A stretch of DNA of 64,000 bases from positions 2,365,382 through 2,429,381 of the forward strand of contig OZ240245.1 of assembly GCA_965198175.1 (NCBI GenBank). Reading direction: 5' to 3'. The translations under genes and the position numbers were made by a program. Of this stretch, positions 3,595-61,510 are shown piece by piece. Position 1 is the first letter of the stretch, and each line of letters opens with the position of its first letter. The notes under the pieces were generated by a model that had not been told where the DNA came from, searched no databases, and worked only from the letters and a program-made list of their open reading frames with translations. Origin of the DNA: Candidatus Poribacteria bacterium. Its GTDB lineage: Bacteria; Poribacteria; WGA-4E; PCPOR2b.

Positions 3595-4533
3595 ATGATG
3601 CGAAGAATTGAGTCTCACCCCATCATTTTTGGTCTGTTATTGTGTTTCATCTGTTGCGCGGTGGCACCTAGTACCCGTGTCGCACAAACGCCGGTGAAAG
3701 AGAAGCAGGTGGATGTGATTACCCTAGACCCACCTCCAGGGGCTTTGGGAAGGGAGAAAGTGACGGTTGATGTGAGAGAAGCAGCTCGCGACTTACGTAA
3801 TAAAGAGATGTTTAAAAAAGCCTCGGGAGTTTTGCATGTGGCTGATAACGCCTATCTCTCGTCTAGCACGGTGAACTTATTGAAAACAGCGTTGAATGAC
3901 GGGTCAGTTGAAGTCAGGATACGCGCAATTAATTTACTGGGAGTTTCAAGAAATCCCGATGCAATAGAGGTAATCTCCAATCGCTTGCAGAACGACCCAT
4001 CTTATCGAGTGAGATGGGCAGCGGCAATTAGCTTGGGGAGGCTAGCCGGGCAAGCGGCAGTTCCCGCATTAAAAATCGCGCTGGATGAGGACAAAAGGAT
4101 TGAAACGGCGGTAATTAATGGGTTAGGATATGCTGGTGGCAAGGCAGTAGCTCTCCTCATCCAGATGTTGAAAGAAGATGGAAAAGAAGGTGGAAACAAT
4201 GCAAATTATTTTATTCAAAGTTTGGAAACAACTTGCGACAGAAGAGCGATTAAGCCTCTCCTCGCTATTATATCGTACCCCACCTCTCCCACCGACCCGA
4301 ATATGAGTCAGGTGCAATTGAACGCAGCGACGGTCTTAGCGCACTTTGCAACGGATTGGATCTATACGCGAATGTTGAAGTCGCGCGACAAATTTTTTGC
4401 GGAGGATTACCCGGCAACTCCGCGTGAGAGCCAACGGGTCAATGCGTCGGATCGAGCCCGGATTGTTGAGGCGCTTAAAACCACCGGGTACGACATCAAC
4501 CGTTTAGCAGAGCGTTTTTGGAGAGTGAATTGA
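3595..4533 (+). CDS. exported HEAT-repeat protein (paralog of the C-terminal part of the upstream gene)
   Basis: 312 aa. Signal peptide (IIFGLLLCFICCAVA). Near-collinear similarity to residues ~265-559 of the 1843..3522 product (VAQTPVKEKQ.DVIT..., VEVR.RAI.LLG.SRNP.AIEVISNRL.NDPS, ...RVNASDRARIVEALKT.GYDINRLAER). Confidence 0.6.
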   Translation: MMRRIESHPIIFGLLLCFICCAVAPSTRVAQTPVKEKQVDVITLDPPPGALGREKVTVDVREAARDLRNKEMFKKASGVLHVADNAYLSSSTVNLLKTALNDGSVEVRIRAINLLGVSRNPDAIEVISNRLQNDPSYRVRWAAAISLGRLAGQAAVPALKIALDEDKRIETAVINGLGYAGGKAVALLIQMLKEDGKEGGNNANYFIQSLETTCDRRAIKPLLAIISYPTSPTDPNMSQVQLNAATVLAHFATDWIYTRMLKSRDKFFAEDYPATPRESQRVNASDRARIVEALKTTGYDINRLAERFWRVN

Positions 4534-4577
4534 ATCACTTTAAAATGCTCAGTCGCTGAATTACCTTAGACTGAACA

Positions 4578-5156
4578 ATGATCCATACCTCACCTTTAAA
4601 AAATTTGTGGTCTATCATGCTACTGTGTGTCATTCTACAGTTCATGGGCTGTTCAGGCAAGTGGGTGGATACGGATGATTTAGTCGGGCTTGACGAAGGC
4701 ATCCAAAGAGCCATCAGAACACCATCTCGTGTCTCTCTCGCCATTGTTTGGAGCGATAAGATCCGGAAGCAATTCGCCCCGGGCTATAAATTTAAATCGC
4801 TCCGTGGGCACCTAAAACAACTTCCCGATGGTAAACGTTGTTGGTATGATGAAAAACAGATCGAATTCCAGATACGTCATAAACAACAAAAATTGCCGAA
4901 ACTTGTGATAGGAACCCATGAGTTATTGCTACGCCTGTCTAACGAGGGCACGAAGGATTATAAAATCCATATCAACGGAGAAAATTGCTATCCGAATAAA
5001 AACGGGGAATGGCATATAATTACGCCATTTACGCGTAACACACATCGGTCCATTGATGCATATTTTCCTGCTATATCCACAGTTTCCATTCAATCTGAGC
5101 AAGGCGTTTGTTTGAGTTCCATCATACTGGTGGATCACGGTATAATGATTAAGTAA
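4578..5156 (+). CDS. hypothetical lipoprotein
   Basis: 192 aa. Signal peptide with a lipobox-like FMGC followed by SGK. No recognisable catalytic motifs. Confidence 0.4.
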   Translation: MIHTSPLKNLWSIMLLCVILQFMGCSGKWVDTDDLVGLDEGIQRAIRTPSRVSLAIVWSDKIRKQFAPGYKFKSLRGHLKQLPDGKRCWYDEKQIEFQIRHKQQKLPKLVIGTHELLLRLSNEGTKDYKIHINGENCYPNKNGEWHIITPFTRNTHRSIDAYFPAISTVSIQSEQGVCLSSIILVDHGIMIK

Positions 5157-5241
5157 AGCAAATCATGTCGTCTTTCGCTAAGTTTGAGAGATGGGGGTAG
5201 TGTAGCTATAGCTAGGTCTTTGGAAAGTAAAAAGGTAAGTT

Positions 5242-6432
5242 GTGCGATGTTCCAGTGGAAATATAGCCAAGTTCTACATCAGCTCAGCACTCGGCGGTTT
5301 TACGTTGTTTCACGGTGTGTTGGGTTTTTACATGAGGCAAATTGGATTTTCGTACACTCAAATCTTCTTTTTAGCCGCTTTATACGAAATCTTGGTATTC
5401 CTTTTAGAAATTCCGACTGGGGTATTTGCAGACCGTTTCGGTCTGAAAAAGAGCGCAGTTCTGGGGCACTTCATATCTGCTGCAAGTTGTTTTCCAATTG
5501 CACTGTTCCCGACATCTTACAGCGTATTCCTTCTTTGGAGTCTGCTGTCGGCAATATGCACTACACTGAATTCTGGTTCGGTAGAGGCGCTACAATATGA
5601 GTCTCTGCGAGATATATCGCGCGAAGCAGAATACACAAAGTTGCGCGGCAGGTTAGCTGCAATTGGTGGGTTTTCAATGCCGGTTGGGGCTTTTATCGGC
5701 GGCACTCTCTGTGGAAACATCGGATTTGGTACAGTAGTCGCTCTTGGAGGGCTAACCGGACTGTTTATTACAGCAGTATTTGTTAGCATGAGCGAACCAA
5801 GGGGGGTTCAACTTGAGCGCGAAAAATCGAAATCCCGAAATACTTTTGAGGCGATAAGCGAAAACTTTCGGTTCATTCAAGGGGATAGGGAATTGACCGG
5901 AGTTATCATCGCTGGATCGATAGTTTATGCAGCGTATCTACTAATCAATAACTATTCGCAGCCGTGCCTGGAAGAGGCAGGTATACAGTCTTATCGAATT
6001 GTAGGCTTGGTTAGCGGGACGCTCATGGTGGTTTTCGCCGTTGTTTCATGGTGGGCGGGATATTTGACTCAACGCATCGGTACAAAAGGCATATTCGTAT
6101 GGTTGTCTGGTGTCCCTATTTTGAGTTTAGTGGGATTGGGAAAACTGAAGGGGATCACACTATTAGCGCCGCTTTATCTCTCCCGATTGGGCGAAGGCGT
6201 TGCCGAGCCCTTCATCTCGAATAGGCTGCTTCAGAAGAGTCCTTTGGGAAAAAGCGCGACACTCCTTTCCACGCAGAGCCTTCTTACATCACTGGTGTTT
6301 TCCATATGGAGCATGGCAAGCGGGTTCGGTCTAGACTATGTTGGACGTTTCTTCATATTTTCTGCAGGTGCAGCATTCGCGCTTATTATATTGTTGTGGG
6401 GCGGCAAATGGGTAGTGCGAACAAACGATTAG
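5242..6432 (+). CDS. MFS transporter
   Basis: About 12 predicted TM segments. MFS motif-A-like GVFADRFGLKKS after TM2. Exact start uncertain. Confidence 0.6.
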   Translation: MRCSSGNIAKFYISSALGGFTLFHGVLGFYMRQIGFSYTQIFFLAALYEILVFLLEIPTGVFADRFGLKKSAVLGHFISAASCFPIALFPTSYSVFLLWSLLSAICTTLNSGSVEALQYESLRDISREAEYTKLRGRLAAIGGFSMPVGAFIGGTLCGNIGFGTVVALGGLTGLFITAVFVSMSEPRGVQLEREKSKSRNTFEAISENFRFIQGDRELTGVIIAGSIVYAAYLLINNYSQPCLEEAGIQSYRIVGLVSGTLMVVFAVVSWWAGYLTQRIGTKGIFVWLSGVPILSLVGLGKLKGITLLAPLYLSRLGEGVAEPFISNRLLQKSPLGKSATLLSTQSLLTSLVFSIWSMASGFGLDYVGRFFIFSAGAAFALIILLWGGKWVVRTND

Positions 6433-55013: not shown

Positions 55014-55466
55014 GTAATATCGTATTCCGTTGTGCGTATAACTTCTGCACACTTCTGCAGTAGGTCAATTCTCCGGATTTCACAGTAGGTCAATAGGCTT
55101 TATTGGGAAAAGTTATCCGGGTTAAGCGAAATATAGCTTCAGGCGTTAATCACCCACCTCCACACAATTACTCATAAGCGTATTGAATACTATCTTGTCA
55201 CCTTTGACGACTATGTTCCCAACCGAGAATCTCATGTCAAGGAAAACGAAACAACAATAGTGAACGTTTGTCCGACTCTCTCAGTTCCCCGAGCACCGTC
55301 AAGTGGTAGATTGTGACCGACAAAGCTAGTTGTGAGAAAAGCTTGGATTGCATTGAGGTTATGCTTGTTGATAACTCCTTCCGAGAAGCGGCTGAGCACC
55401 TCTTTCCTTTGTCCGTCGCCGACATGTGGTGATTAGCCTACGACGAATAGTTTGAAGAAATTCTAT

Positions 55467-55496
55467 TGACGACAGAGAGGGTTGAAAGGTACAATT
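55467..55496 (+). promoter_or_regulatory. candidate sigma70-type promoter (TTGACG-18-TACAAT) for thrC
   Basis: Near-consensus -35 and -10 hexamers about 110 nt upstream of the thrC start. Seen in the sequence only. Confidence 0.3.
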
Positions 55497-55604
55497 GTCA
55501 TATCAGAACCGTGCGAAGGGCGACCCCGTTGGATAATGAGCAAATCTGGAGGTATAGGCAACCTGTTAAAGCTTGATTCCAGCCGGAAGGAAAGGATTGA
55601 GGCG

Positions 55605-56939
55605 ATGAAATATCATGCGTGGTTTCAATGCAGTGAGGGCTGTGACGAAAAGTACCCGCTCAATGAAGTCATTTATCGTTGCCGAGCGTGCAATGGCTTA
55701 TTAGAGGTTAAACACGACATAGACCGCTTAAGGCATCGAAACGCCGCCGCGTGGAAGGAGTTGTTTAATGAGCGGTATATGAGAACGCAATACCCCTATG
55801 GCAGCAGCGTCTGGGGCAAAAAAGAGTTGGTTTGTCCGCATATTGATGATGAAAATGTGGTTTCAATGTATGAAGGAGGCACCAATCTCTTTTGGGCTGA
55901 GCGGTTTGGCAAAGAGATAGGTCTTTCTAATCTCTGGATAAAGCAGTGTGGAAACAGTCATACAGGCTCCTTCAAAGACTTAGGGATGACTGTTTTGGTT
56001 TCCATGGTGAAGCAGGTGATAAAAGGAGGCGGCGACATCCGCGTGGTTATGTGCGCTTCTACGGGTGACACCTCCGCTTCACTGGCAGCTTATGCAGCAG
56101 CAGCAGGCATTCCGGCGGTTATTCTTTTGCCACAGGACAAAGTGTCCCACGCACAACTCATTCAGCCGATTGCCAACGGGGCAATTACGCTTGCCTTAGA
56201 AACGGATTTCGATGGCTGCATGGCGGTTGTCCAAAAGCTTGCGGAGAGGAAGGATTTTTACCTGGCAAACTCAATAAATTCTCTACGGATTGAAGGGCAG
56301 AAAACAATCTCCATTGAGATAGTCCAGCAGTTTGACTGGGAAGCACCAGATTGGGTCATCATTCCGGGGGGTAATTTGGGAAATGTAACAGCACTTGGAT
56401 TGGGGTTTTTAATCATGCGAGATTTAGGGATTATCAATAGACTACCACGCATTGCTTGCGCTCAATCCGCCAAAGCGAATCCTTTGTACCAAAGTTACCT
56501 GAAACATTTCAAGACGTTTGACCCGGTTACGGCGCAGTCAACGATTGCAACAGCGATTCGAATTGGTCATCCTGTTTCCGTGAAAAAGGCGATAAAGGTA
56601 TTAAAACAGTTCGACGGAATTGTGGAGCAAGCAACGGAGGACGAGTTAGCAAATGCCGTAGCCAGGGCAGATCGAACAGGGTTATTCAACTGTCCTCATA
56701 CAGGGGTTGCTCTCGCAGTGCTGCTGAAAATGGTAGAAAGCAGGCTAATTCAACGCGATGATCGGGTTATCGTTATCTCGACAGCCAACGGACTCAAGTT
56801 CCCGGAGTTTAAGATTGATTACCACCAAAGCAAATTGAAAGAAGTTCAGCCTCAACATGTTAACTCACCGACAACACTCGAACCAAACTATGACACGGTG
56901 ATGAAAACGATTACCCATCAACTGAAAGCCTTGAACTAA
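55605..56939 (+). CDS. thrC: threonine synthase (long form with N-terminal zinc ribbon)
   Basis: PLP lysine motif GSFKDLG. N-terminal C..C...C..C ribbon. 444 aa. Confidence 0.75.
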   Translation: MKYHAWFQCSEGCDEKYPLNEVIYRCRACNGLLEVKHDIDRLRHRNAAAWKELFNERYMRTQYPYGSSVWGKKELVCPHIDDENVVSMYEGGTNLFWAERFGKEIGLSNLWIKQCGNSHTGSFKDLGMTVLVSMVKQVIKGGGDIRVVMCASTGDTSASLAAYAAAAGIPAVILLPQDKVSHAQLIQPIANGAITLALETDFDGCMAVVQKLAERKDFYLANSINSLRIEGQKTISIEIVQQFDWEAPDWVIIPGGNLGNVTALGLGFLIMRDLGIINRLPRIACAQSAKANPLYQSYLKHFKTFDPVTAQSTIATAIRIGHPVSVKKAIKVLKQFDGIVEQATEDELANAVARADRTGLFNCPHTGVALAVLLKMVESRLIQRDDRVIVISTANGLKFPEFKIDYHQSKLKEVQPQHVNSPTTLEPNYDTVMKTITHQLKALN

Positions 56940-56978: not shown

Positions 56979-58973
56979 CTATATTTTTAACGCTTTCTTC
57001 CCTGCTTCTAGCGTTTTGATGATTGCCTCAACGTCATAGACGCATCCGCCCCATGTTCCACCGCCAATGCTCTGAAGCGCAGCCCACAGGCGGGTATCCC
57101 CCGGCAGCATCTCGTCGGGAGCGAGGTCTGGACGTGGTAATCTTTCCGCTAAAACTCGCGCTCCTTCTTCTGGCCCAAAGGTAGTATAACCATGACCGAC
57201 CAAATCTACGCTCCCTTCCAGCCGATTTCGATCGATGACAATTTGAATAAGATCGCCGTTGATTACCTTGCCGATAGGACCATCAGCCAACGCTTCAGGT
57301 CCAATGTGTCCGATACATGCGCCGGTTGACACACCGGAGAATCGGGCATCAGTAATCAGGGCGATATGTTTACCGAAGGAGAGGTGCTTAAGAGCAGCAG
57401 TAATTTGATATACCTCTTCCATGCCAGTGCCCATTGGTCCTCGGCAGCAAAGCACCATCACCTCTCCCGGTCTGATTTGGTCTTGGTCTCCACGCTTAAT
57501 CGCGCGAATTGCGTCGCGTTCCCGAACAAAGACACGCGCAGCACCAGTCATACGATAGACGCCGTCGGGATCAACAACGCTCGAATCGATAGCGGTACTT
57601 TTGATTACCGATCCTTCAGGTGCAAGGTTGCCGCGCGGAAATGCGAGGGTACTCGTCAGTCCACGCTTCTGCGCAGTATTAGGATTCATAATTACATCGT
57701 CTGGATGGACGCCATCACTTTCCATCAGCAAAACCCGCAGCCGTTGACGTCGCTCAGACTTTTCCCACCAATCAAGGTTCCGCCCAAGGGTTTCGCCCGT
57801 CGCGGTGATAACATCTTCGTTGAGCACACCTAGGTCCCGTAAACGAAGCATCACTTCAGGAACACCACCCGCGAGAAAAACGCGGACCGTTGGATGTCCG
57901 ACAGGTCCATTTGGAAGCACATCCACAAGACGGGGTGTTTGGCGGTTGACACGAGTCCAATCTTCGATGTTGGGGCGATCTAATCCCGCTGCGTGAGCAA
58001 TCGCAGGAATGTGTAGGAGCAAGTTTGTAGAACCCCCGAAAGCGGCATGAACAACCATCGCGTTTTGAATTGCTTCGTCGGTGAGGATGGTTCGCATCGT
58101 GATGCCTTTTGCTTCGAGGTTGACGAGAGCGCGCGCCGATCGCTTTGCCATATCCAACCAAATCGCTTGCCCTGAAGGCGCGAGGGCTGCGTGAGTGAGC
58201 GTCATGCCCAAAGCCTCTCCGACGACCTGCGAGGTTGCAGCCGTGCCTAAGAATTGACACCCGCCCCCCGGCGTCGCACACGCTTTGCACCCGAGGTCGG
58301 AGGCATCCTGCAAAGAAATCTCACCGTGTGCGAAACGCGCACCAATCGTCTGAATCTTGCCCGCATCCTCACCTTCAATGGGTGGCAGTGTTACGCCGCC
58401 CGGCACTAATATACATGCTAGATTGGACATTGCCGCAAGCGCTATCATTGTCGCGGGTAGCCCCTTATCGCAGGTTGCCACGCCCATCACCCCTTTGCGT
58501 GTCGGCAGCGATCGAATGAGCCGACGGAAAATTTGTGCAGCGTCGTTGCGGAATGCTAGGCTATCCATCATACCAACTGTGCCCTGTGTACGCCCATCAC
58601 AGGGATCTGAGCAATAACCCGCAAATGGAATCGCGCCCAGCGATTTAAGCTCGCTTGCAGCAGCTTGCATCAACAAGCCTACTTCCCAATGCCCTGTATG
58701 ATATCCAAGCGCGATTGGTGTCCCATCGGATGCACGGATACCGCCTTGTGTGCTCAGAATTAGAAACTGTTTCCGATTCAATTCAGCGGGCGACCACCCC
58801 ATACCTACATTCTGGCTCAGCGCAAAAACATCGCCGCTCGGCAAATTGAGAAGCATTTCCTCCGTGAGTGGTAAACTGCCCTGGGGTCCAGAGGCATTCG
58901 TCTGACATGTGTAGATCGCGGCGTCGTCGGAAGCAACAATTTTGTCAAATTCGATGATTCCAGTCGAAACCAT
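56979..58973 (-). CDS. IlvD/EDD-family dehydratase (YjhG/YagF-size sugar-acid dehydratase-like)
   Basis: 664 aa. Fe-S ligand region CDKGLPA and substrate motif ITDARFSG. Longer than canonical IlvD. Confidence 0.75.
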
Positions 58974-60211
58974 ACTCTTCTTCCCCTTTTCCTGTTTTCA
59001 TCGTCAGTTTCATGATGCATTCGATAGCGTAGATTGTCTCCACCGTTACCTTTAGCTGTCCGGACCCAATAATGGGTTGTCAACACGGTTCCCAAGCTTC
59101 CTATGATAACGATTCAGAGTTTTTTGGGCTAGACTTCTCGGGGCGCCTTTATTGACATATTTTCAGCCGTGCAGGTTCGTGGAGGTGTGCGGCTTTGGTT
59201 TGATTGCGTCCAAGATGTCTGTATTTCGGCGATCGAGAATACCCATAGCATCTCGATTCCTATCGCTACAACGTTCTAATCGAATACCTGAACCTGTTTA
59301 TCCGGACATTGAACTGTCAGATGCTAAAGATTATCAGAATTTTCCCTCTCATGTCAAATCAATCGTCCAAAATGTCTGTGAAACATGAAGGCTATGACGT
59401 ATCAAGCGACTTACATTTCAACTTAGCAATTAATCGCAATCTGACGTGCCAATTTGCATGACATGGCACAAAATAGCGCACTTATCCATGCTTAACAAGG
59501 TAACTACTTGGAGTTTTGCCGAATCCAACAGCCAATATTGAGATCCACGCTCTACCTCCAAACTGAGCCATGCACATGCGTCCGTAGTGAGGTGCCGCGT
59601 TAGAGAGCACAAACAATTTGCTTGACAAAGTTGGCTGATAGTGATAACATTACAAAGTTTTGGGGCAGGCGGATACTGAGTGGGGAATGGGATGAATGTG
59701 GGCACGTTGTCAGTTGTCGAACATGGACTGATAATCGTCAAGGATAAGCACGGGGATTTGGTTTTCCTATCATTGAGAAACAAGAGGTATGGGGTTGCTT
59801 GGCTATCAAAAGGATATGAGGGAAGATGAGCGACTAGGAAAAAAAATAGATAGTATGCCCTAACCTTATATGTCCCTTGTGTTCATAAATGAAAGAAAAA
59901 CGAATCATCAGGGATTTCTAAGTGACGCAGCGTTTTCCGCAGAGAATAGAGATATGAACCCTAATTAACGATTTCTGTCCTGTGCACTCTGCGCCAACTA
60001 ATACTTTGTAAATGGATATTTTTCGGACAGAAATCACGCGGCAATTTCATTTCAGATTACCTCCAACGGGGCTGTTTACAAAGGGTCTGGCTGTACCCCC
60101 CAAATCTATCGTGGAGCATTGTTGCCGTATTGTCCATACAATTGCGTTGGAGTGAAAATAGGCAAATTCCGATTTGAACCGAGATTGCTTTTTAAGAACA
60201 TATGCCTTAAA

Positions 60212-60251
60212 ATGCCTATTATCACACTGGTGGTAGTAGGCATTTTTTTTC
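60212..60251 (+). terminator. intrinsic-terminator-like hairpin (14-bp stem, 4-nt loop) plus T8, 23 nt upstream of the thrC-like start codon
   Basis: 60212..60225 pairs with 60230..60243 (two G-U wobbles), followed by TTTTTTTT at 60244..60251. A terminator inside a leader marks either an attenuator/riboswitch or the 3' end of an upstream sRNA. Confidence 0.5.
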
Positions 60252-60274
60252 ACGGTTTCAGATAGGAGAAAAAA

Positions 60275-61510
60275 ATGGAAGAAAAAGTATTTGGATTGAA
60301 GTGTCGTGAATGTGAGAGAAAATATCCTAAAGAGCCCATTCACGTTTGCGAATTCTGTTTTGGCCCGCTCGAAGTGGATTACAACTATGCAACTATTCAG
60401 AAATCCATTTCGCGGAAATCCATTGAACGAGGTCCTGTCAACCTCTGGCGATATATCGATCTGTTGCCTATTGATGGTGAACCTACCGATGGATTGAACA
60501 CCGGCTTCACACCGCTGATTCGTGCGAAAAATTTGGAGGCTGCCTTCGGCGTCAAGGAATTGTATATCAAGGATGACTCCGTGTGTCACCCCACGCTTTC
60601 CTTCAAAGATCGAGTGGTTGCCGTGACACTGAGCAAGGCGAAGGAGTTTGGGTTCGATACTGTTGCATGTGCTTCGACCGGGAACCTCGCCAACTCTGTC
60701 GCCGCGAACGCGGCGGTCGCCAATTTTGACTGTTTCATCTTTATCCCTGCCGACCTCGAAATGGCGAAAATCGTCGCATCGCTGGTTTACGCGCCTACGG
60801 TGGTCGGTATTATGGGAACATATGACGATGTCAACCGGCTCTGTAGCGAGATTGCGGGTGTATATCCGTGGGCATTTGCCAACATCAACACCCGTCCATT
60901 CTACGCCGAGGGGTCGAAAACTTTTTGTTATGAAATCATTGAGCAACTCGACTGGAAAACGCCGGATCACATTATTGTGCCGGCGGCAGGCGGCTCGCTT
61001 GTCACAAAAGTGGGCAAAGCGCTGAAGGAATTTCACCTGCTAGGATTGATTGATGAGCCAAAAACGAAGATTCATGTAGCACAAGCTGAAGGCTGTGGGC
61101 CAATTGTCACAACGCTGAAGGAAAATAGCGATTTCGTCAAACCGGTACGAAAGCCAAGTAGCATTGCCAAGTCCCTGGCGATTGGAAATCCTGCCGACGG
61201 AATATATGCCGCCGCAACAGTACGAAATTCGGGCGGTTATGGAGAACATGCAACCGATGAGGAGATTGTCGACGCCATCAAACTCCTCGCAGCAGCCGAA
61301 GGAATCTTCACGGAGACAGCAGGCGGTGTCACCCTCGCAGCGACGCAGAAGTTGATCGAGAGTGGGCGCATCAATCGGGACGATTGCATCGTTATTGGCA
61401 TCACGGGGAACGGACTAAAAACCATCGAAGCCCTCGACGGCAAGGTTCCAGAAACGCATGTCATCCAACCGCAATTGAATGTGTTTCGGAAATTGATGAA
61501 AACACTTTAA
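60275..61510 (+). CDS. threonine synthase-like PLP enzyme (second ThrC homolog)
   Basis: PLP motif SFKDR. N-terminal zinc ribbon C.EC....C.FC. RBS AGGAG. 411 aa. Confidence 0.75.
   Translation: MEEKVFGLKCRECERKYPKEPIHVCEFCFGPLEVDYNYATIQKSISRKSIERGPVNLWRYIDLLPIDGEPTDGLNTGFTPLIRAKNLEAAFGVKELYIKDDSVCHPTLSFKDRVVAVTLSKAKEFGFDTVACASTGNLANSVAANAAVANFDCFIFIPADLEMAKIVASLVYAPTVVGIMGTYDDVNRLCSEIAGVYPWAFANINTRPFYAEGSKTFCYEIIEQLDWKTPDHIIVPAAGGSLVTKVGKALKEFHLLGLIDEPKTKIHVAQAEGCGPIVTTLKENSDFVKPVRKPSSIAKSLAIGNPADGIYAAATVRNSGGYGEHATDEEIVDAIKLLAAAEGIFTETAGGVTLAATQKLIESGRINRDDCIVIGITGNGLKTIEALDGKVPETHVIQPQLNVFRKLMKTL

Follow-up and report, generated by a model that had tools for sequence, protein, structure and literature searches.

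A conserved terminator-antiterminator leader upstream of a ThrC-family gene in Candidatus Poribacteria, a candidate ribosome-mediated attenuator with a possible link to methionine

Poribacteria are sponge-symbiont bacteria, and the DNA analysed here, a stretch of 64,000 nucleotides (the window), belongs to a Candidatus Poribacteria metagenome-assembled genome (MAG). It carries two genes resembling threonine synthase (thrC), the second of which is preceded by a gap of 1.3 kb (58974..60274) that ends in a strong hairpin. The subject of this report is the leader element of this second gene, which comprises ~215 nt (60034..60250) with a terminator as its last part, and which was found solely upstream of the orthologous gene and nowhere else in about 1 Mb of sequence compared. 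The homologous loci that were compared with the window are referred to by L-numbers (L002-L087), L087 being a metagenome locus. The parts of the element and the gene that follows it, all on the plus strand, are these:

60012..60155, plus strand: candidate leader open reading frame (ORF) of 47 codons, reading MDIFRTEITRQFHFRLPPTGLFTKGLAVPPKSIVEHCCRIVHTIALE and then a stop, with its TGA (60153..60155) inside the antiterminator strand
60040..60058, plus strand: 5' strand of helix P1 (GGCAATTTC..TTCAGATT), from folding and covariation, spanning codons 10-16 of the leader ORF
60059..60131, plus strand: hypervariable interior of the leader domain, from the comparison of L004 with the window, overlapping the 5' strand of P2
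60061..60068, plus strand: 5' strand of helix P2, CTCCAACG, from folding, overlapping the hypervariable interior
60145..60152, plus strand: 3' strand of P2, CGTTGGAG, from folding, abutting the antiterminator strand
60152..60164, plus strand: region 2, the antiterminator strand, GTGAAAATAGGCA, almost the same in sequence as the terminator 3' arm and pairing with 60213..60225
60171..60189, plus strand: 3' strand of P1 (GATTTGAA..GAGATTGCT), between region 2 and the terminator
60212..60225, plus strand: region 3, the terminator 5' arm, ATGCCTATTATCAC, shared by terminator and antiterminator
60226..60229, plus strand: terminator loop, ACTG (ACUG in RNA), from the sequence
60230..60250, plus strand: region 4, the terminator 3' arm GTGGTAGTAGGCAT (60230..60243) with its run of eight T (60243..60250), from sequence, folding and conservation
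60265..61510, plus strand: GGAG Shine-Dalgarno sequence (60265..60268) and the regulated gene (60275..61510), encoding a ThrC-family, pyridoxal phosphate-dependent protein with an N-terminal Zn ribbon

The hairpin at 60212..60243 is as a preliminary description of this DNA, made from the sequence alone, had presented it, with a 14-bp stem, a 4-nt loop and eight T, and a ribosome-binding site and an ATG (60275) do follow immediately. The 14 pairs include 2 G-U and 5 G-C, four A (60209..60212) precede the stem, and the T run, in which the last paired T is counted, ends 24 nt before the ATG. Folding of 60195..60275 with RNAfold gives -23.9 kcal/mol (z = -4.08), a stability matched by 1 of 200 shuffled sequences. 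The hairpin was absent from the output of a simple terminator scan, which probably missed it since extension of the stem through A/T pairs consumes the T run. The terminator is kept in 17 leaders of the orthologous gene, namely the 14 full-length leaders that make up our alignment A4 (the window, L004, L087, L009, L013 and nine main-group genomes) and the partial copies in L007, L008 and L019; a scan of metagenomes with the leader pattern added one new locus only, L087. All 12 core pairs are preserved in 14/14 full-length leaders, where variation is confined to A/G changes that keep a wobble pair, and the stem of L019 has undergone a two-sided change (CAC/GTG to GTA/TAT). Region 3 is invariant save for the position that is mismatched in the antiterminator and one wobble-compatible A-to-G change in L087. 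On this comparative evidence the hairpin is predicted with confidence to be a real intrinsic (Rho-independent) terminator conserved in Poribacteria.

As a separate observation, the main-group leaders (L010, L012, L014-L018, L020 and L022; ~5900..5990) have an extra conserved segment of ~90 nt between the terminator and the ribosome-binding site, with a stem CGGTCAGTC … GACTGACTG that was read from the alignment by eye; the window, L007, L008 and L013 are without this segment.

The preliminary description had taken a terminator within a leader for the possible expression platform of a riboswitch or attenuator, and this suspicion is borne out by the finding of a conserved antiterminator and a covarying helix beside it. 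The alternative antiterminator fold, when looked for, was found in the pairing of 60152..60164 with 60213..60225. Across the leaders region 2 contains the invariant block GTGA(A/G)AATAGGCA, and 13 of the 14 antiterminator positions pair in 14/14 leaders, with 91% of the cells of the alignment paired vs 34-50% in slid controls. Apart from the wobble-compatible change in L087, region 3 thus varies only where the antiterminator has its mismatch, a pattern to be expected of a strand that has to serve two partners. When single sequences are folded with region 4 included, the terminator forms in every leader, and when region 4 is left out, every leader can form the antiterminator, L007, L008 and L019 included. 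The alignment of regions upstream of the thrC-like genes, comprising 14 leaders, thus contains a conserved structure, and the lack of any such conservation, which would have reduced the hairpin to the end of some upstream transcript, was not borne out.

These observations bear on the simplest alternative, according to which the terminator is unregulated and marks the 3' end of a small or other noncoding RNA transcribed from a candidate promoter at 59622, or acts as an insulator, while the gene is transcribed from elsewhere. The hairpin is strong, about 600 nt lie between that promoter and the hairpin, and an RNA of this kind would in any case arise as a by-product whenever transcription ended prematurely. 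However, the 14 nt between the T run and GGAG leave no room for a promoter, and the antiterminator strand, whose sole function would be to compete with the terminator, is maintained in 17/17 leaders. The element also stands always directly upstream of the same gene, and because the upstream neighbour gene in more distant Poribacteria differs from that of the window, it must be said to go with the thrC-like gene rather than with its neighbours. We regard an unregulated terminator as quite improbable.

Upstream of the terminator, the leader is predicted to fold into a domain closed by P1 and P2. P1 is paired in 95.6% of cells among the 14 leaders, with covariation at one pair that occurs as AU, GC, GU or UA, at one that changes from AU to GC, and at one that occurs as UG, UA or CG, and an unguided RNAalifold prediction recovers P1, an apical hairpin P3 and the terminator. 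P2 joins an upstream segment to bases just 5' of region 2 or overlapping it, and its main-group version is CTCACTTTG / CAAAGTGAG. Because the 3' strand of P1 sits in the loop of the antiterminator, P1 and the antiterminator are mutually exclusive. For the leader up to region 3, the energies of the domain and of the antiterminator fold differ by -5.5 to +5.3 kcal/mol, so that the two are nearly isoenergetic. The window copy retains P1, P2, the antiterminator and the terminator without damage to any of them. Taken together, this anatomy is very probably that of a transcription attenuator, and the existence of the switch itself can be considered well supported.

In the OFF state proposed here, P1 (60040..60058 with 60171..60189) and P2 (60061..60068 with 60145..60152) would close the domain and sequester region 2 (60152..60164), whereupon region 3 would pair with region 4 and RNA polymerase would stop at the T run. 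In the ON state, region 2 would pair with region 3 (60213..60225) as the antiterminator, the loop of which swallows the 3' strand of P1, and transcription would read through into the gene. The choice between the two folds would most likely be made by a ribosome on the leader ORF (60012..60155). A ribosome that has reached the stop codon inside region 2 would mask this region and favour termination, one that is delayed earlier in the ORF would melt or block P1 and P2, leave region 2 free and favour read-through, and a leader that is not translated would form the P1/P2 domain and terminate. That the 5' leader of the thrC-like gene holds a ribosome-mediated transcription attenuator, with methionine as the probable ancestral signal, is in our opinion the best explanation of the data, and one that we hold with moderate confidence.

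The same layout would also suit a metabolite riboswitch of an undescribed class, in which P1, P2 and P3 (about 60040..60189) would form the aptamer and the ORF would be incidental; a candidate version is that a ligand of the methionine pathway, e.g., S-adenosylmethionine (SAM), stabilises P1 and P2, so that region 2 is sequestered and the terminator forms. A covarying closing helix beside a terminator and an antiterminator, with folds of nearly equal energy, is typical of OFF riboswitches, and a SAM riboswitch has been reported for the metM gene of Streptomyces albulus (Hasebe et al. 2024, as cited in PMC12172450). However, no known family accounts for the leader. At the gathering score, Rfam 15 gave no match to any family in the 64-kb window, and at E <= 10 only chance-level hits were obtained for 58800..60400 and for the main-group leader of L014; no match was found to the models of SAM-I, II, III, IV, V, VI, SAM/SAH, T-box or Thr leader, and nothing was found with Rfam at 11 loci of other phyla. 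The Rfam scan that was once suggested for this region has therefore not turned the leader into a known riboswitch.

The interior of the domain argues in the same direction. L004 comes from the same JGI sample as contigs with the window allele, and its segment 361..432, compared with 60059..60131 of the window, shows 24 differences and one 1-nt indel in 73 nt, as against ~13 differences in the other 4.2 kb; counted over 4.3 kb, this short stretch holds 24 of 40 differences. Between these co-occurring alleles the interior is thus ~33% divergent vs 0.3% in the flanks, the opposite of what a ligand-binding core would show, and it also differs among the window clade, the main group and L019. L019 (5640..5980) has kept the same promoter type, regions 2, 3 and 4 and the 3' block of P1. 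The sensor part of the leader therefore appears, from these comparisons, to be evolving fast while its expression platform is fixed, which argues against a ligand-binding aptamer core. The divergence of 60059..60131 could be due to short-patch recombination or to diversifying selection. A riboswitch also leaves the features of the ORF unexplained, namely its indels in multiples of three, its aligned start, its stop at region 2 and its gains of in-frame Met codons. A new riboswitch class is consequently judged unlikely, although it deserves to be taken seriously.

These ORF features carry the proposal of a ribosome-mediated attenuator. The leader frame is open for 39-54 codons, and the indels within it measure 3, 9, 12, 3 and 6 nt. 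L087, L013 and the main group have their start codon at one and the same aligned position, L009 has GTG as its start, and in the window and in L004 the ORF begins at an in-frame ATG 8 codons upstream of the start of the relatives; in the relatives, where the ORF has 39-46 codons, its start falls opposite the RQxHF codons of the window ORF, and for this ORF MRQSHFNFSSITHFVPFANTTMYMPGMGIAAVAVSMRARRSENRQI followed by a stop is a main-group example. The stop codon falls inside region 2 or at most ~25 nt past it. The leader ORF is represented in protein databases by 35 clusters, all annotated as hypothetical proteins, in which T21, M22, Y23, M24, P25, G26, M27 and M36 are invariant (T-M-Y-M-P-G-M ... 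S-M); the ORF of the window itself has no entry there. In relatives the ORF has 5-6 Met per 39-46 codons, the Met cluster, which is present in most other Poribacteria, overlapping CATG hairpins, and extra in-frame Met codons have been gained in L020, L087, L009 and 13 of the database clusters. The variable columns of the ORF are spread evenly over the codon positions (27/28/31), so that the frame is kept open without protein-like selection on the peptide, as would be expected of a leader peptide.

Other ways of reading the leader as coding were considered. A run of Thr and Ile codons of the thrL type was rejected, Thr not being enriched in relatives (1-3 per ORF) and the N-T-T position being variable; in the window ORF Thr accounts for 5/47 codons, which are not clustered. 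Frame B, taken as a His/Cys leader with HGHCCCCGVHAC in main-group leaders and EHCCRIV in those of the window clade, was set aside, since main-group sequences offer no start codon for it. It may be observed that translation of the -1 frame (5742..5800 in L014 and its equivalents; 60112..60155 in the window) gives HVHAGHGHCCCCGVHAC for the main group as against EHCCRIV for the window clade, that a 3-nt indel in it adds or removes one Cys codon, and that the window ORF ends in this frame. The preliminary description had also proposed a leader peptide rich in Ile, Val and Thr starting at ATG 60212 (MPIITLVVVGIFFHGFR). That ORF exists and is rich in Ile and Val, but its codons fall within the terminator stem and beyond it, where translation cannot decide the formation of the stem ahead of the polymerase, its composition follows from the conserved stem sequence, and its ATG is not conserved, most relatives having TTGCC at this place with stops or other frames. 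The probability that it is the leader peptide is very close to nil, and the ORF at 60012..60155 takes its place as the candidate.

Several observations weigh against a ribosome-mediated, methionine-responsive switch. The translation of the leader ORF is something we infer, and no Shine-Dalgarno sequence is evident before it in the window or in relatives. The ORF of the window is without internal Met codons, no codon forms an obvious run in it, and it ends in a frame other than that of the L004 allele and the main group. The nearest species, represented by L007 and L008, are without the P1 5' strand and the long ORF, and in L019 the small ORFs are unrelated, though one of them (MTVHLSTYNVERRRRQCQSLLTTWH, then a stop) ends inside region 2. 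Only 2 pairs of P1 change on both sides, a count of such pairs that does not go beyond the shuffles (113/500), and the phylogenetic depth is small, being that of one phylum and about 5 lineages. The even spread of variation over codon positions may be counted here as well, since together with the missing Shine-Dalgarno sequence this want of third-position bias suits a riboswitch with an incidental ORF. The Met codons of the relatives sit in the CATG palindromes S1 ATGTACATGCC, S2 GGGCATGGGCAT and S3 GTGTCCATGC, which form alternative hairpins and show no synonymous variation; constraints on the RNA could therefore explain the Met cluster, and the nucleotide invariance of the S1-S3 region is again what the riboswitch would lead one to expect. 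Finally, methionine starvation also limits the initiator tRNA, which is the classical objection to attenuation by methionine.

Palindromes have a part in a further alternative, in which a trans-acting factor selects the fold, be it an RNA-binding protein of the TRAP, PyrR or LicT type or a DNA-binding repressor on palindromes. Main-group leaders do contain the perfect or near-perfect palindromes CATGTACATG and CATGCCGGGCATG, and there are invariant single-stranded blocks, e.g., AATAGGCAA-TT-AGAT, that helices alone do not explain. Yet in none of the lineages is the locus linked to a gene for a candidate regulator, the palindromes are absent in the window clade, which retains P1, P2, the antiterminator and the terminator, and the features of the ORF are again left unexplained; such a factor is improbable.

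The identity of the regulated gene bears on the question of what the switch might sense. The preliminary description called the gene threonine-synthase-like, but threonine synthase is probably the wrong function for it. Both thrC-like proteins of the window pass the ThrC model TIGR00260. The first one (55605..56939), a plant-type ThrC encoded 3 kb upstream, matches the plant threonine synthase 1e5x with E = 1.9e-159, whereas the regulated protein (411 aa; PALP domain, E = 1.6e-60; TIGR00260, 262 bits) matches ThrC structures only at ~1e-49. Homologues at 61-67% identity occur in Nitrospirota, Omnitrophota, Methylomirabilota and other phyla, and in 57/58 of the loci outside Poribacteria (L029-L086) a 91-aa ThiS/MoaD-like gene (…PAIAGG) lies nearby, nearly always directly downstream; L033 is an exception in placement, its ThiS-family gene being ~2.5 kb away. 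In three (L041, L079 and L035) of four loci sampled, a ThiF-family gene flanks the pair, the assignments to the ThiF and ThiS families having been confirmed; L035 also has a cysteine desulfurase, and L041 (4797..7510) an Rrf2 regulator. By its composition, this ThiS/ThiF gene set is predicted to be that of MetM, MetO and MoeZ, by which O-phosphohomoserine is turned into homocysteine along the thiocarboxylate route. MetM is homologous to ThrC, and ThrC is the name that it is often wrongly given in annotations (bioRxiv 10.1101/2024.10.14.618325; PMC12172450). The regulated enzyme is thus probably a MetM-like enzyme of the methionine pathway and not the housekeeping ThrC, and the same is probably true of the whole Zn-ribbon 'threonine synthase' clade of other phyla. 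Against this, none of the Poribacteria loci has a ThiS-like gene in the +-6 kb around it, nor does the 64-kb window contain one, so that the MetM assignment in Poribacteria is one by homology only. The 392-aa gene downstream in the main group was considered as a MoeZ and rejected, for by eye, with no family search made, it reads as an AspC-type aminotransferase.

Concerning the first thrC, it has a Cys-rich N-terminus of its own, and the 590-nt gap upstream of it (55014..55604) holds one promoter-like site (55466..55495), while neither a terminator nor a leader-like ORF could be found there. In the Poribacteria lineages L011, L021 and L023-L028 (about 4500..6000), a leaderless thrC-like gene directly follows a conserved gene of ~470 aa (MLYYGLVCTAIS…), and no attenuator was found upstream of this operon.

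For a MetM-like enzyme, a leader with Met codons would make biological sense, and it is on the Met cluster of the relatives and the context of the MetM/MetO-like clade that the choice of methionine supply as the probable ancestral signal is based. Such sensing is possibly at work in the relatives. The allele of the window has lost the Met cluster, and the methionine reading is therefore not carried over to its own copy; the ORF of L004, which keeps the main-group frame (…GMPYNLLRSIAAVRSILLRWSENRQIPI and a stop) and 2 internal Met, is more like the main group than that of the window, and the L004 allele looks nearer to the ancestral type. A fuller version of the proposal, that we offer tentatively and would not be surprised to see fail, is that the leader is a Met-codon attenuator of a MetM-type synthase, the first ribosome-mediated one for methionine, with its sensor being replaced or eroding in the window population, or else a new riboswitch class with a ligand from the methionine pathway.

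The remainder of the gap and its surroundings can be described with four further features:

56979..58973, minus strand: YjhG/YagF-type xylonate dehydratase gene (1140 bits), the start of which is the left edge of the gap
59330..59357, minus strand: promoter-like site TTGACA-16-GATAAT for the divergent dehydratase gene, with 11/12 matches, in a block kept in L007/L008
59622..59650, plus strand: candidate promoter of the leader transcript, TTGACA-17-TAACAT with an upstream TG, from a promoter scan
59677..60003, no strand assigned: window-specific DNA between promoter and leader, absent from L007/L008

To the right of the gap, on the plus strand, the thrC-like gene is followed by one for a RecD2 helicase. 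The protein of 60275..61510 recurs with identical sequence in an ENA metagenome contig of 819 kb and in several short contigs from JGI, and its closest genomic relatives are all Candidatus Poribacteria MAGs, at 77-93% identity. The absence of a convincing ORF from the gap, noted from the start, was upheld. None of the five gap ORFs searched against Pfam (59152-59388+, 59309-59461+, 59430-59783-, 59680-59829+ and 60012-60155+) gave a match above cutoff, the sole match being a sub-threshold one of 59309..59461 to C2-set_2 (E 0.0044, 17.5 bits, cutoff 21), and gene callers predicted nothing within 58974..60274 on the 819-kb contig. An ORF called on one JGI contig (59680/59692..59829, 45-49 aa) matched only itself among 5.8 billion proteins, and no tRNA or tmRNA genes were found.

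In the nearest species, L007/L008, whose protein is 93% identical, the corresponding intergenic region measures merely ~480-530 nt. It shares with the window the 5' region of the dehydratase (58974..~59055), the block 59617..59706, where the promoter reads TTGACA-17-TAATAT, and the ~180 nt that immediately precede the thrC-like gene. The site at 59622..59650 is positionally aligned with the TTGCCT-N17/18-TGCTAAAAT promoter of other Poribacteria, and in L007/L008 it directly adjoins the minus-strand site (59357..59330), which is context and lies outside the switch. Two pieces of window DNA are missing there and have no family match, one of ~240 nt (59378..59617), which splits the otherwise adjacent divergent promoters, and one of ~330 nt (59677..60003), which separates the promoter from the leader. 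Beyond the closest species, conservation is confined to about 60012..60250, and in more distant Poribacteria to 60034..60250. It is accordingly true that no convincing gene was recognised in the 1.3-kb noncoding region, and not true that the region is one feature, let alone a single large RNA. Only the last ~240 of its 1,300 bases belong to the switch, and the remaining ~1 kb consists of two divergent promoters and lineage-specific filler unrelated to it.

Four JGI contigs (L006 and L002-L004) start within 31 nt of each other, at window positions 59668 and 59699, just past the block of the plus-strand promoter, and three of the four carry consecutive ids. This clustering suggests a break in the assembly graph caused by upstream strain variation. 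No repeats or miniature inverted-repeat transposable elements were found within the window or the loci as a source of the extra DNA or of the contig breaks.

Genes for methionine biosynthesis are controlled by repressors, SAM riboswitches and T-boxes. A search of the literature on methionine leader-peptide attenuation and on riboswitches of Poribacteria found nothing relevant. If the proposal is true, the leader would be the first ribosome-mediated attenuator for methionine and would directly test whether methionine starvation precludes methionine attenuation. The analysis also indicates that, in this uncultured phylum of sponge symbionts, a family annotated as ThrC is probably a homocysteine synthase dependent on a sulfur carrier, and provides a compact RNA element of ~215 nt, outside Rfam, that can be modelled and searched for.

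Among known systems, the SAM riboswitch of Streptomyces albulus metM, as described in the sources available to us (PMC12172450; bioRxiv 10.1101/2024.10.14.618325), is likewise a cis-acting RNA leader of a ThrC-homologous gene of the thiocarboxylate pathway with a terminator-type OFF switch; in contrast to it, the Poribacteria leader matches no SAM model, has a hypervariable interior and is crossed by a conserved ORF. The T-box leaders of Gram-positive bacteria, which respond to the supply of the amino acid concerned, share with the Poribacteria leader the choice between terminator and antiterminator in the leader of an amino-acid gene, whereas the T-box sequence, the specifier-loop architecture and an Rfam T-box match are all missing here. 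The closest parallel to the switch that we propose is found in the leader attenuators of E. coli. Unlike these, the Poribacteria leader has an ORF of 39-54 codons vs 14-32, an anti-antiterminator made of a long-range helix over ~130 nt with an inner domain in place of a simple 1:2 hairpin, an enrichment of Met in relatives with no codon run in the window allele, and neither a recognisable Shine-Dalgarno sequence nor a match to an Rfam leader family. Like trpL, thrL, hisL, pheL, leuL and ilvL, it combines a 3:4 terminator, an exclusive 2:3 antiterminator and an upstream pairing that sequesters region 2 with a short ORF that crosses the upstream strands before ending at region 2, and with an enzyme of amino-acid biosynthesis downstream.

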